A stretch of DNA of 34,311 nt from Eubacteriales bacterium. GTDB taxonomy: Bacteria > Bacillota > Clostridia > Oscillospirales > CAG-272. This document shows positions 13,056 to 34,311 of the stretch, in pieces. The DNA is taken from positions 1 through 34,311 of the forward strand of contig JAZOAA010000176.1 of NCBI GenBank assembly GCA_045595265.1, given 5' to 3'. Numbering within the stretch: position 1 is the first letter of the stretch; every line of letters starts with the position of its first letter. The translations under genes were made by a program, and so were the position numbers. The notes beneath the pieces were generated by a model. It had not been told where the DNA came from and ran no database searches. It worked only from the letters and a program-made list of their open reading frames with translations.

Positions 13056-13106
13056 TAAAAAGTCATATCGCTTAACCAAAAACGGTTTTGCGATATGACT
13101 TTTATT
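13054..13106. terminator. Bidirectional terminator between pdxK and the S1-domain gene
   Basis: AAAAGTCATATCGC...GCGATATGACTTTT with an inner AACC/GGTT pair. Confidence 0.85.
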
Positions 13107-14042
13107 TTAGAACACGCTTTCTATAATTCTTTTTGAGATTTTGGGTGAATACCGCCAGTTGTCTATGTGCGTTACGGATTTTGTGTCAATATAGTATTCT
13201 AAAGGAGAAGGGTAGTCTGCGACGTCCTCTGCTGCTATTATTATCAATTTTATCTTCATTTTTTCGGGTATTATGCTCTTTATGTATACCGCCGCACCCG
13301 CGCCGACTTCGGCATCCTCTTTATACTCTGCAAGTCCCGCAAGATTTGGCTTTAGTTCAACGAATATTCCGTAGCTTTCTATACTTCTTATTATGCCTCT
13401 TACGGTTTGCCCTTCGGAGAAATGCGCCGCATTTTCCTCCCAACTTCCCAAAAGCTCTTTTGAAGAAACGTATATTCGTCCTTTGTCGTCTATATTTTTT
13501 ACAATGGTGTATATCGCGTCACCAACGCAAACTCTTGCAGATGGGTGTGATATGCGTGATACAGATATTGAGTCGATAGAGAGTAGGGAAACAATACCGC
13601 AGCCTATATCTACGAAAGCACCAAAGTTTTCTAAATGAGTAACCCTTGCCGGAATAATATCACCCGGAGCGAGAGCCTCTATGTAATTATGATAGCATTC
13701 TCTTTGTGCCGATCTGCGAGAGAGAATTGCGGTATAGCTGCCTCCGCCGTCCTGCTCAAAGCCTAATACCTTAAAGGCCACAGGCTTTCCCACTCTTGTG
13801 AGTATTGCGATATCCTTTATTTGCTCGTCTGTATACGAATAAGCTATCTCTGATCTTGGTATTATGGCGTGCATCTTGCAGGGAAGCTCTACGTGAAGGT
13901 TGAAGCTATGATCGCAAAGCGTTGCAACCCCCTCTAAAATCATACCGTCACGCTGGGCTCGTTTTAATCCCTCGGGACTTGAAATATACTCATAATTTTC
14001 TTTTTCGGAAATCAACATACCCTCGGGCATATATTTATTCAT
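13107..14042 (-). CDS. Protein with about three S1 RNA-binding domains
   Basis: S1 signatures ARVTHLENFGAFVDIGCG...ISVSRI and GQTVRGIIRSIESYGIFVEL, plus a degenerate N-terminal S1; RBS AAAGAAAGG. Confidence 0.88.
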   Translation of the reverse strand: MNKYMPEGMLISEKENYEYISSPEGLKRAQRDGMILEGVATLCDHSFNLHVELPCKMHAIIPRSEIAYSYTDEQIKDIAILTRVGKPVAFKVLGFEQDGGGSYTAILSRRSAQRECYHNYIEALAPGDIIPARVTHLENFGAFVDIGCGIVSLLSIDSISVSRISHPSARVCVGDAIYTIVKNIDDKGRIYVSSKELLGSWEENAAHFSEGQTVRGIIRSIESYGIFVELKPNLAGLAEYKEDAEVGAGAAVYIKSIIPEKMKIKLIIIAAEDVADYPSPLEYYIDTKSVTHIDNWRYSPKISKRIIESVF

Positions 14043-14106
14043 GTTACTTACCTTTCTTTTTACGTATTAAAAACGGATAAGCCGATTGATTAAATATATG
14101 CCCGAG
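14022..14106. repeat. Inverted repeat, 20-bp arms (19/20), spanning the start of the S1-domain gene
   Basis: 14022-14041 CTCGGGCATATATTTATTCA versus reverse complement of 14087-14106 CTCGGGCATATATTTAATCA; the first 16 bp are perfect. Confidence 0.9.
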
Positions 14107-14121
14107 ATTGATTTTCTATTC
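14093..14121 (-). promoter_or_regulatory. Candidate sigE-type promoter of the S1-domain gene
   Basis: Minus strand gaATA-16 nt-CATATATT, matching the B. subtilis sigE pattern ATa-N16-18-CATAcanT. Confidence 0.55.
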
Positions 14122-14129
14122 TGTTAATT

Positions 14130-14498
14130 TTAATATTCTTCTGCGCTCTTGTTACCTCCAAGTCCGAAGCTGACTTCTATTGCGGAATTAACGCTGCTCA
14201 TAGTTGCCTCGTCAAGATGTCCCATCTTTTCTTTGAGTCGCTTTTTGTCTATTGTTCTTATTTGCTCAAGCAGAATTATACTGTCCTTGGCAAGTCCGGC
14301 ATCATCTCCCGGTACGTCAATGTGCGTAGGCAGCTTGGTTTTGCTGATTTTTGAGGTAATGGCAGCCGCGATTACCGTCGGACTGTATTTATTTCCTATA
14401 TCGTTCTGAACTATTAATACAGGGCGCAAGCCACCCTGTTCACTACCCACCACAGGACTTAGATCTGCGTAGTAAATATCTCCTCGCTTTATGTTCAT
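14130..14498 (-). CDS. mazF: MazF/PemK-family endoribonuclease (NdoA/EndoA type) with no adjacent antitoxin
   Basis: [46 protein letters not shown]...KLPTH...[17 protein letters not shown]. Start placed at ATG 14498 by family length; the SD is weak. Confidence 0.95.
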
Positions 14499-14702
14499 TT
14501 TTATAACCCAGACCCAAAATTTATAAGGATCCTTTTTCTTCTCCTTTTTTGTTTGCAATATTATTTTGCACCGCTTTGTCTTTTTTAATCAAATACGGAA
14601 AAATTTATATTTCCCATATCATTTTATGCCAAATGTATTTTTCCTCTACCGATACAGGTTTTGCGCATTTTAATAAAAATTATCAAAAAAGGTAAAAATA
14701 TA

Positions 14703-14731
14703 TTGATTTCATCGACAAATTGTTGTATAAT
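14703..14731 (+). promoter_or_regulatory. sigA-type promoter of the NCS2 permease
   Basis: TTGATT-17-TATAAT. Confidence 0.65.
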
Positions 14732-14765
14732 TATTGCATCCTAAAAAATAAAGAAGGAGACAGAA

Positions 14766-16596: not shown

Positions 16597-17298
16597 TTAA
16601 TCTTCAAAAAACGGTCTGGATTCGCCAAATGCTTCTTTTAATTTTTCAAGTGAGCGCTTTTCTATCCTTGAAACGTAAGAACGAGAAATGCCAAGATACG
16701 CGGCAACCTCGCGCTGCGTTCTCGGCTTATAACCCTTAAGTCCGTATCTCAGTACGATTATTTCACGTTCTCTGGGTGGGAGAAGCTCATCGACGAGAGT
16801 CCTTATTTTTTCTATATGTCCTTTTAAGTCTAAATCCGCCTCAATTGATTCTTCAACGCTTATAATATCGAGATATGTAAGTGGATTTCCGTCTTTATCT
16901 ACGTCTATCGTGTCATTTATGGATACTTCCATGCCCGAGCGTTTTTTGCTTCTGAAAAACATTAAAATTTCATTCTGTATACATTTTGATGCATAGGTGG
17001 CAAACCGTGTTCCAAAGCTGGGCTTGAAGGAATCTACCGCTTTGATGAGTCCGAGACTTCCGATAGATAAAAGTTCGTCGGGGTTTTCATAAGAAGAATA
17101 ATATTTTTTTATTATATGAGAAACCAAACGCAGATTGTGCTCGATAAGCTTATCGCGCGCTGCCTCATCAGACGCCTCTTTTCTTATAAAAAGTGACAAT
17201 TCTTCTTCTTTTGATAGCGGGGGCGGAAAGCTTGTTGATTCCTCCATACCCAGAATTAGGGAAATAAAGCGTAGTAGCAATTTTGTTATATCAAACAT
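16597..17298 (-). CDS. sigK: Sporulation sigma factor pro-sigma-K, uninterrupted
   Basis: SFPPPLS, LIEHNLRLVSHIIKKY, ATYASKCIQNEILM, DKDGN, TQREVA..LGISRSYVSRIEKR. Start at ATG 17298 with RBS GGAG; ~17-aa hydrophobic pro-sequence. Confidence 0.92.
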   Translation of the reverse strand: MFDITKLLLRFISLILGMEESTSFPPPLSKEEELSLFIRKEASDEAARDKLIEHNLRLVSHIIKKYYSSYENPDELLSIGSLGLIKAVDSFKPSFGTRFATYASKCIQNEILMFFRSKKRSGMEVSINDTIDVDKDGNPLTYLDIISVEESIEADLDLKGHIEKIRTLVDELLPPREREIIVLRYGLKGYKPRTQREVAAYLGISRSYVSRIEKRSLEKLKEAFGESRPFFED

Positions 17299-17338
17299 TT
17301 CTAATACTCCGTTCTGCCGCTTGGGCTTTCTTAATTGG

Positions 17339-17364
17339 AGTATATGCAAATGCCGCTTGTACTC
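17339..17364 (-). promoter_or_regulatory. Candidate sigE/sigK -10 element plus SpoIIID-like site upstream of sigK
   Basis: Minus strand GAGTACAAGC (resembles the SpoIIID consensus aaggACAanc) followed by CATATACT. Confidence 0.45.
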
Positions 17365-33244: not shown

Positions 33245-34186
33245 ATGAAGCTTAAATTTGACCGAAAAGACAAAAAACAAGCCGACCCTTTTATTTTTGA
33301 GGACAACGGCAAATTTTATATTTTTGTTAGCGGTATCAATATAGGCGGTGTTGAGGCGTATTCTTCAAACGATATTTTCGGAGAGTGGAAATACGAGGGC
33401 ATTGTAACCGACTTTGCTGCCGGTTGCTTTGACTTTTGGGCGCCATCTGTAATCAAATACCGCGGCAAGTATTATATGTATGTGTCTTGTAGAGAGAGTC
33501 AAAAGTCCAATCAGTATATGCACGTTGCAGAATCTGACACCCCTCTGGGTCCTTACAAAAATGCGAAAAAGATATATGACGAGTTTTCGATTGACTCCCA
33601 CGCGGTAGAAACAGAGGACGGACTGTATCTTTGGCTTTCGATGAACGATTGGAACTTTGACGAAACCCGTCGTGCAGGCACGAGAATTTTTGTTGTAAAA
33701 ATGAAAGACCCTTACACCCCTGACGGTGAGCCTGTCGAAAAGGTTATTCCAACTCTTGATGAAGAGAAATTCACCCCGCAGTGCAATGATAAAATTCAGT
33801 GGCACACCATAGAGGGTGCGTTTTGGTTTAGAGAAGGTGACTGGCAGTATCTTATGTATAGCGGAGGATGCTACGAGGACGAGACGTACCATATAGGCTA
33901 CTGCGCCGCAAAAAGCGATGAACCAGATTTAAGAAAAGTCGATTTTATAAAGTATACCGACGGTGGCAAATTTTCTCCCATAATCACAAGAAACGATTTT
34001 GAAGAGGGAACAGGTCACCACAGCGTTATAAAATATAACGGTGAATATTATGCCGTCTACCATGGCAGAGATATCGGTGTATATGATAAAAATGCCGAAT
34101 ATGTCGAAGAACGGACTGCCAGAATTTGTAAATTGCATATCATGGACGGGAACATAATCGCAGATCAGCATGAAGATGAAATATAA
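33245..34186 (+). CDS. Glycoside hydrolase family 43 (five-bladed beta-propeller), cytoplasmic
   Basis: ADPF (general base), WAPSV, SIDSH (pKa modulator), TIEG (general acid), GHHSV, YHGR; no signal peptide. Confidence 0.9.
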   Translation: MKLKFDRKDKKQADPFIFEDNGKFYIFVSGINIGGVEAYSSNDIFGEWKYEGIVTDFAAGCFDFWAPSVIKYRGKYYMYVSCRESQKSNQYMHVAESDTPLGPYKNAKKIYDEFSIDSHAVETEDGLYLWLSMNDWNFDETRRAGTRIFVVKMKDPYTPDGEPVEKVIPTLDEEKFTPQCNDKIQWHTIEGAFWFREGDWQYLMYSGGCYEDETYHIGYCAAKSDEPDLRKVDFIKYTDGGKFSPIITRNDFEEGTGHHSVIKYNGEYYAVYHGRDIGVYDKNAEYVEERTARICKLHIMDGNIIADQHEDEI

Positions 34187-34311
34187 TTCTGCCGCGAATT
34201 AAATGACAAAATACAAAAACGGAACGGAATAAGGTTGCTTTTTTGTATTTTGTTATTTAATTCGGGGCAGAATTATATTTTATCTTTATGCCGCTCTGCA
34301 ATTATGTTCCC
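34148..34311. repeat. Long inverted repeat, arms >=72 bp (65/72 identical), 20-bp spacer, running off the window end
   Basis: 34148-34219 versus the reverse complement of 34240-34311; ungapped, 7 mismatches by manual alignment. Confidence 0.92.
34273..34311 (-). CDS. Partial: 3' end of a probable convergent GH43 paralogue or remnant (...GNIIAERHKDKI*)
   Basis: The minus-strand translation matches the GH43 C-terminus GNIIADQHEDEI* with the stop at the same position. Only 13 codons are visible. Confidence 0.5.
   Translation of the reverse strand, partial: GNIIAERHKDKI

Follow-up and report, generated by a model that had tools for sequence, protein, structure and literature searches.

How might a gene that lies directly behind another gene of the same orientation be shielded from transcripts that run through from its neighbor? 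Cell-type-specific gene expression during sporulation is explained almost wholly via sigma factors, and read-through from neighboring genes is a known leak in compact genomes. The question is raised by a locus in a 34,311-nt stretch of DNA from a Eubacteriales bacterium (contig JAZOAA010000176.1 of assembly GCA_045595265.1; the whole stretch is referred to here as the window), in which a gene for a 311-residue S1-domain protein (13107-14042; Pfam S1, E 1.2e-21; ATG at 14042-14040) lies 87 nt downstream of mazF, a co-directional PemK/MazF-type endoribonuclease toxin gene (14130-14498; Pfam PF02452, E 2.7e-37; TAA stop codon at 14132-14130). All locus coordinates refer to the minus strand of the window unless stated otherwise. 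The answer to which our analysis points, and which we hold with somewhat better than even confidence, is a fold-back lock of the type described for IS10 and IS50, embedded in the sporulation promoter of the S1-domain gene.

The inverted repeat and the promoter in the mazF-S1 gap

The gap between the two genes contains a 20-nt sequence (14087-14106; the 5' arm, or anti-initiation-region arm), comprising the last 6 nt of a promoter spacer, the -10 box and 6 nt beyond it, that is complementary at 19 of 20 positions (95%) to a 3' arm located 45 nt away (14022-14041), which takes in the last two bases (UG) of the start codon together with codons 2-7 (N K Y M P E). The single mismatch is A/A (14090 versus 14038). 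Outside the arms, AAAUCAA at 14108-14114 is the exact complement of UUGAUUU at 14009-14015, and the Shine-Dalgarno (SD) sequence, GAAAGG at 14056-14051, lies within the 45-nt loop. These features were described in the initial annotation, and both a repeat search and direct reading of the sequence agree with it, except that the minimum free energy fold skips the 7-bp extension and takes a 9-bp outer helix (14122-14130 with 14009-14017) instead. The predicted stem consists of 17+3 bp plus the outer helix of 7-9 bp. The fold that had been suggested as a check, that of the 151-nt minus-strand RNA, has a predicted energy of -40.6 kcal/mol, compared with -19.8 +/- 3.2 kcal/mol for 200 dinucleotide shuffles (z = -6.5), none of which folded as well. 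Eight inverted repeats of at least 16 nt within 120 nt are present in the window, and the one studied here is the only non-overlapping example with a loop of more than 8 nt. In contigs from three public DNA runs, which drop minor variants, both arms are unchanged and no joint falls inside the repeat; one of the runs has a G>C change at 14110, which breaks the central pair of the 7-bp extension on the RNA.

A terminator scan of 14009-14130 revealed no terminator-like site between the mazF stop codon and the 5' arm, again as initially annotated, so that read-through from mazF is possible at this locus. The repeat is itself not an intrinsic terminator, because its loop is 45 nt long and no U-run follows the stem, and the scan gave no match in the same interval. 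Nor does it belong to a known Rfam riboswitch, leader or thermometer family: no family reached its gathering threshold, the best matches being to microRNA-precursor models (22.7-30.8 bits versus cut-offs of 100-140).

The sequence that forms the 5' arm is also part of a promoter (14093-14119), with ATA at -35 (14119-14117), a 16-nt spacer (14116-14101) and the -10 box CATATATT (14100-14093). This ATA-N16-CATATATT layout has the published signature of sigma-E promoters: ATA at -35, a spacing of 16-18 nt and a CATA-type -10 box. According to the main text of a study on C. difficile (Saujet et al. 2013, PMC3789822), sigma-E and sigma-K promoters share a -10 box, for which CATATTAT is given as a canonical mother-cell form with a spacing of 16-18 nt, and differ at -35, where ATA denotes sigma-E and AC denotes sigma-K; that main text does not mention an S1 or RNA-binding protein. 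Reading by eye, we found no sigma-K-type AC at the proper distance in the window promoter.

Orthologous loci from species genomes and metagenomes gave 149 unique upstream regions. Among the first 100 of these, 63 carry the strict ATA-N16-CATA motif at a distance of 30-85 nt from the ATG, with the consensus G-t-a-ATA-t-T-t, 13 variable bases, t-CATA-t-n-n-T-T. A position weight matrix (PWM) built from 62 orthologue promoters, with the window site left out for the genome scan, scores at least 10 at 112 of the 149 loci. The window promoter scores 16.6-16.8, which makes it the top site in the window and one of the best matches in the genome. The other top matches in the genome include genes resembling those for YabP, SpoIVA, SpoIIID and a manganese catalase, as judged from the N-terminal 40 residues only and below the full-length cut-offs. 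Conservation in orthologues and the recovery of yabP, spoIVA and spoIIID with the same PWM thus support the proposal that the upstream arm carries the -10 box of a sigE-like promoter, as well as the assignment of the S1 promoter to the sigma-E type, alongside the promoters of these three genes. From the usual distance of 6-9 nt after the -10 box, its transcripts should start at about 14086 (14084-14088), just past the 5' arm. The 5' leader of such a short transcript (14043-14086) would correspond to the loop of the long hairpin and contains a small leader hairpin (14082-14076 with 14052-14046) in addition to the SD sequence.

Promoter core and ribosome-binding site across orthologues

Each promoter core was scored both against its own ribosome-binding site (RBS), as the cognate pair, and against those of all other loci, as non-cognate pairs, so that features common to all promoters or to all RBSs cancel. 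The duplex energy was -15.18 kcal/mol for cognate and -13.01 kcal/mol for non-cognate pairs (n = 63; 0/10000 permutations), and the best ungapped helix score was 17.57 versus 15.47 (0/20000 permutations); in an extended set the corresponding helix scores were 15.90 and 13.85 (n = 112). Removal of similar loci left the cognate excess at 2.58 (n = 85), 2.60 (n = 70) or 2.67 (n = 30), each with 0/5000 permutations. Helix scores of at least 25 were reached by 8 of 85 cognate pairs, compared with 0.6% of non-cognate pairs. The arms are specific to lineages, with helices (perfect or with G-U pairs) of 11 bp at loci L011 and L047, 12 bp at L080 and L083 and 13 bp at L030, and a further example at L032.

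The excess depends on position, both on the promoter and on the gene. On the promoter it is about 2 for -20..-1 and -10..+9 of the -10 box and lies between about 0 and 0.9 in the other upstream windows; on the gene it is 2.5, 1.5 and 1.0 for -20..-1, -10..+9 and 0..+19 of the ATG, respectively, and at most 0.7 deeper in the gene. At 28 non-redundant loci with long leaders, the untranscribed spacer (-22..-3 of the -10 box) has an excess of +2.92, whereas the first 18 transcribed bases (+14..+31 of the -10 box) give -0.87, i.e. they are depleted in complementarity to their own RBS relative to foreign ones. This combination of spacer excess and leader depletion is exactly what a lock that depends on the transcription start site predicts. 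What is new here is that, as judged by sequence comparison across orthologues, the spacer and -10 box of a promoter complement the SD and start codon region of their own locus, with sequences that differ between lineages.

Compensatory change in the orthologous mazF-S1 gaps had been proposed as a check on the initial annotation, and the outcome is divided. The pairing between promoter core and RBS is, as a class, kept through different sequences and covaries, with arm positions that shift between lineages; the specific 20-mer of the window is absent from the relatives compared, which are at most 71% identical in protein sequence. A genome scan gave no relative above 71% protein identity and a metagenome scan none above 68%; a protein search returned proteins with 98%, 81% and 74% identity.

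Controls gave much lower values. With the same geometry, the excess was -0.25 to 0.77 for the mazF start and -0.33 to 0.59 when the test was shifted into the S1 coding sequence; direct, mirror and complement-only orientations gave 0.19, 0.07 and 0.03, respectively, compared with 2.31 for the inverted orientation. For all 967 SD-bearing genes of the genome, the cognate and non-cognate scores were 14.60 and 14.47. The signal of 2.3-3.5 is well above the background of the control windows.

The complementarity is not limited to the S1-domain gene. Orthologous promoters of spoIVA (17.71 cognate versus 14.32 non-cognate; n = 38; 0/5000) and spoIIID (18.50 versus 14.98; n = 46; 0/5000) show it as well, with the excess confined to promoter core versus RBS, and three further sigma-E-type promoters in the genome (contigs C47, C126 and C67; loci L195, L193 and L194) have 12-15-bp helices between spacer and SD. 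On these sequence comparisons, the pairing looks like a property of sigma-E-type promoters instead of one peculiar to the mazF-S1 pair. An anti-RBS sequence as a rule for all promoters was rejected, since the 137 sigma-A-like sites of the genome, taken as a class, have no excess (-0.15).

The initial annotation had tied the lock to read-through from mazF, and in this respect it is amended. The toxin gene adjoins the S1-domain gene at 43 of 85 non-redundant orthologous loci; the excess is 3.32 at these and 1.82 at the 42 loci without an adjacent mazF, where it is above zero (p = 0.05), and the difference between the groups (Mann-Whitney p 0.016) is confounded with phylogeny. Helix scores of at least 25 occur in both groups (3/43 with mazF and 5/42 without). 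Given pairing at loci that lack mazF, read-through from this gene is one plausible input and not a requirement.

Some observations on other hairpins and promoters of these genomes may be added. In the hairpins on contigs C47, C126 and C67, the loop is 8-20 nt long and the 3' arm is followed by a T-run; these hairpins might both terminate transcription and lock read-through RNA. The spoIIID promoters of the genus to which the window belongs (loci L279-L301) have GCATT where other lineages have the -35 ATA, and little RBS pairing. The strongest RBS-occluding hairpins of the genome include some with sigma-A-like boxes in the 5' arm (C74, C119, C26 and C123; assessed by eye), that on C119 carrying a perfect TTGACA-N17-TATAAT; a promoter-like site that overlaps the 5' arm and has its predicted start within the hairpin was found for 4 of 10 genes with a helix score of at least 25 and for 78 of 835 with a score of at most 17.

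A proposed start-site-dependent lock and its alternatives

Predicted accessibility of the initiation region differs between the two kinds of transcript. At 63 loci, the mean unpaired probability of the RBS (-14..+5) is 0.61 in RNA from the predicted start; it is 0.40 when the locus's own 73 upstream nt are included, compared with 0.48 with a swapped promoter region (Wilcoxon 6e-5). In the window, opening of -18..+15 is calculated to cost 22-26 kcal/mol for RNA starting at 14106 or further upstream, compared with 7.3-10.2 kcal/mol for starts at 14082-14090. The occlusion of long but not of short RNAs that was originally proposed is thus reproduced in the model.

The repeat, the conserved promoter, the position-specific covariation of promoter core and RBS, and the predicted energies form the basis of the proposed lock. 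The S1-domain gene would be a mother-cell sporulation gene driven by the sigma-E-type promoter in the 87-nt gap, with the DNA of this promoter doubling as an anti-initiation sequence. RNA started further upstream, through mazF read-through or stray initiation, would carry the promoter sequence as RNA, and its 14106-14087 segment would base-pair with the UG of the AUG and the six codons after it, closing the landing site for the 30S subunit; the long stem may also be a target for RNase III. In contrast, RNA from the gene's own promoter, beginning at about 14086, would lack the 5' arm and could not form the stem, because its start lies right after the arm, and it should be translatable. Synthesis of the S1 protein would then be confined to the time and place of sigma-E activity, irrespective of transcription from upstream. 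The position of the start, the occurrence of long transcripts and any consequence for translation are inferred.

Several points weigh against this reading. The start site is a predicted one and read-through from mazF a putative one; the one metatranscriptome run, available as contigs only, gave pieces on parts of the S1 coding sequence and of mazF, and none over 13697-14315. The covariation is a statistical trend, helix scores of at least 20 being found at just 20 of 85 non-redundant loci (versus 4.3% of non-cognate pairs), and the helix is absent at several loci (L006, L037, L039 and L070). Control windows at spoIVA and spoIIID reach +0.9 to +1.0 with permutation p-values of about 0.005-0.01, and such p-values are too optimistic because the loci are related; within the genus of the window, scores at the spoIIID promoters are low, at 12-18. 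Strong helices occur where the nearest upstream open reading frame (ORF) seems divergent (L047 and L080), which implies that a co-directional gene is not required, the ORF call being a crude one that places spurious antisense ORFs even over mazF, and terminator-like hairpins precede the promoter in some mazF-S1 gaps (L005, L017 and L028; by eye). The SD sequence of the short transcript is itself partly paired in the leader hairpin, at a cost of about 5 kcal/mol to open. With respect to the folding strand, the cognate helices contain 60 G-U and 56 A-C positions, near-equal counts that do not single out a strand, and the cognate excess is 2.40 under sense rules versus 1.78 under antisense rules; the sense RNA is nonetheless favored, because the 3' arm tracks the RBS.

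A first alternative is that the 20-mer is a product of chance or drift without function, in which a -10 box inherently complements the K-Y-M-P codons and the remaining bases were acquired by accident or through template-switch repair. The built-in complement is real, and itself weighs against the lock: about 10 of the 20 repeat bases are accounted for in this way, since a good -10 box, GCATATATTT, has the reverse complement AAA-TAT-ATG-C, which encodes the conserved K-Y-M-P codons, and locus L102 has an identical GCATATATTT/AAATATATGC 10-mer. The relatives compared at the DNA level are also too distant to reveal upkeep of the 20-mer, and the usual spacer-to-SD pairing is absent from the window (score 11 for D = -20..+9). 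However, 19 matches of 20 plus a 7-bp extension far exceed the built-in 10-mer, none of the 200 shuffles folds as well, the repeat is the sole non-overlapping long-loop example of its size in 34 kb, and the family-wide, position-specific excess shows that pairing between promoter core and initiation region is favored; we regard a chance origin as unlikely. To a role in RNA processing or stability, in which the hairpin would either be cut by RNase III or form a 3' structure by which the mazF message is ended or stabilized and set apart from that of the S1-domain gene, we assign the same low probability. Substrates of RNase III have a size of about two helical turns of double-stranded RNA, within which the 20-bp stem (up to 27-29 bp with the outer helix) falls, and mazF has no other terminator. 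Set against this are the features, given above, that distinguish the repeat from an intrinsic terminator, the presence of the same pairing at spoIVA and spoIIID, and the behavior of the covarying 3' arm, which tracks the downstream SD and start codon and not the end of an upstream gene, including at the 42 loci without mazF. Were the stem cleaved, moreover, the S1 initiation region would be lost with it, and the gene would be silenced just the same.

Were the long transcript the working mRNA, the stem might be a regulated switch opened by the S1 protein, by MazF cleavage in the loop or by temperature, with the CATA motif being no promoter at all. The motif ATA-N16-CATAnnnT is, however, conserved at a variable distance of 37-80 nt from the ATG, a pattern expected of a promoter but not of RNA with a conserved structure; known sigma-E genes are picked out with the same PWM, complementarity to the RBS is depleted in the transcribed leader, and the Rfam matches are limited to sub-threshold microRNA hairpin models. 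What speaks for a switch is that both strand and start site rest on prediction, that transcription from a weak sigma-70-like site at 14155-14127 (9 of 12) would produce a long leader, and that mazF-S1 synteny is conserved in the genus; on balance we consider it very unlikely. We give slightly less credence still to an action of the repeat at the level of DNA or of the other strand, as a site for a dimeric regulator, a cruciform, an invertible segment or a face-to-face antisense sigma-E promoter. The plus-strand arm does contain CATATATT, and the G-U and A-C counts leave room for such a reading. Arms that differ between lineages while their complementarity stays are nevertheless a poor fit to a protein site; the plus strand has a PWM score of 3.3, compared with 16.8, and an antisense site of at least 12 is present in only 2 of 112 orthologues, on which grounds an origin of the repeat from an antisense sigma-E promoter was rejected. 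With 45 bp, the segment between the arms is very short for inversion by a recombinase, and the contigs with no joint inside the repeat likewise provide no sign of inversion, within the limit that contigs drop minor variants. The centering of the 3' arm on the RBS is that of an element acting in the sense strand at the RNA level.

Beyond this locus, it is possible, though we put it forward tentatively and with less than even confidence, that sigma-E promoters of endospore-forming Clostridia generally carry the complement of their own RBS in the spacer and -10 box, which would constitute an insulation code specific for one sigma class, with the S1-domain gene, spoIVA and spoIIID as three instances. 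If so, mother-cell genes would be silent in RNA not begun at their own promoters, and compartment specificity would be enforced at two levels by one piece of DNA. A promoter that encodes an anti-RBS sequence would shield its gene from read-through without a terminator, such that when the protein is made, and in which compartment, depends on the promoter alone. A second layer of sporulation control would then follow a simple rule that can be tested on sequences, the limits on drift in promoter spacers would have an explanation, and a compact natural design for gene insulation would be at hand; the conserved RNA-binding protein with S1 domains would also stand out as one tightly restricted to the mother cell. 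A literature search for earlier accounts, which had most subscription journals outside its reach, returned no description of a sporulation promoter complementary to its own RBS.

Known fold-back systems and the genes of the locus

The closest parallels are in insertion sequences. In IS10 and IS50, transcripts from outside carry sequence upstream of the start of the transposase promoter that pairs with the initiation region. The details of this fold-back inhibition of transposase are said to have been worked out by Davis, Simons and Kleckner in 1985 and, for IS50, by Reznikoff. The likeness of the present locus to IS10/Tn10 and IS50/Tn5 is that an arm upstream of the gene's own start pairs with its initiation region, so that only longer, external RNAs would be locked. 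As in those elements, the 3' arm lies over the SD or start codon (14022-14041 in the window; -20..+9 of the ATG for the partner in orthologues), and the 5' arm lies upstream of the gene's own start, here a predicted start at 14086 +/- 2. A passage in a recent preprint (10.1101/2025.01.24.634351) mentions a proposal that the initiation signals of tnpA in IS10 and IS50 are sequestered by mRNA secondary structures. The present case differs in that it concerns a chromosomal, developmental gene and not a mobile element, in that the 5' arm is the spacer and -10 box of the sigma-E-type promoter itself, giving an association with one sigma class, and in that the pairing is kept via different sequences across a bacterial order and in three gene families.

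The left end of IS200, as set out in a passage of PMC4513863, has a terminator that guards against impinging transcription and, in the leader, an inverted repeat that sequesters the SD. The combination of a defense against impinging transcription with sequestration of the SD is shared with the present locus; however, in IS200 the defense is a terminator, and the hairpin, lying within the element's own 5' untranslated region, also limits its own transcripts, whereas the 5' arm described here is outside the predicted own transcript. The fate of an RNA being set by its promoter, with an RNase III-type stem completed only in the read-through form, is also a feature of retroregulation of lambda int by sib, the classic case of promoter-dependent RNA fate. 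The sib element is located 3' of its gene and acts on stability, whereas the element here precedes its gene and would be expected to affect initiation. Anti-SD platforms of riboswitches, RNA thermometers and leader hairpins likewise block translation by pairing across the SD or start codon; theirs is a pairing inside the transcript that is opened by ligand, heat or protein, whereas here the site of transcription start would decide.

The product of the S1-domain gene is, on the evidence of its domain, a paralogue of ribosomal protein S1, the NCBIfam S1 models giving at most 102 bits against cut-offs of at least 368, i.e. far under the rpsA cut-offs. Orthologues of the gene are present in 40 of 41 related genomes searched, and the databases label the protein merely as 'S1 RNA-binding domain-containing protein'. 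With its conserved sigma-E-type promoter, this paralogue would be a mother-cell-specific RNA-binding protein. A bidirectional terminator-like hairpin, with 20-nt arms, a 6-nt loop, an A-run and a T-run, is located at the end of the gene (13058-13103).

Upstream of mazF is a gap of 267 nt (14499-14765), followed by a divergent permease gene. No ORF of more than 24 residues is present on the mazF strand within this gap, and matches to a MazE/AbrB-type domain (PF04014) were found only on other contigs of the genome, ribbon-helix-helix-type antitoxins not having been searched for. On these searches, the locus does not have the make-up of a type II mazEF pair; a MazF domain is present, but a neighboring antitoxin gene is not found in 14499-14765. 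The synteny of mazF and the S1-domain gene is kept within the genus, in which the mazF protein, at about 76-94% identity, is more conserved than the adjoining S1 protein (59-71%).

About 2.5 kb from the S1-domain gene, at 16597-17349, lies a gene for a SigK-class sporulation sigma factor, which scores 259 bits with the SigK subfamily model and 199 bits with that for SigE, and whose product has an N-terminal extension as in pro-sigma factors. At the other end of the window, an inverted repeat (34148-34311) with 78-nt arms that are 88% complementary and separated by 8 nt reaches the end of the contig and may be a fold-back artefact of assembly.

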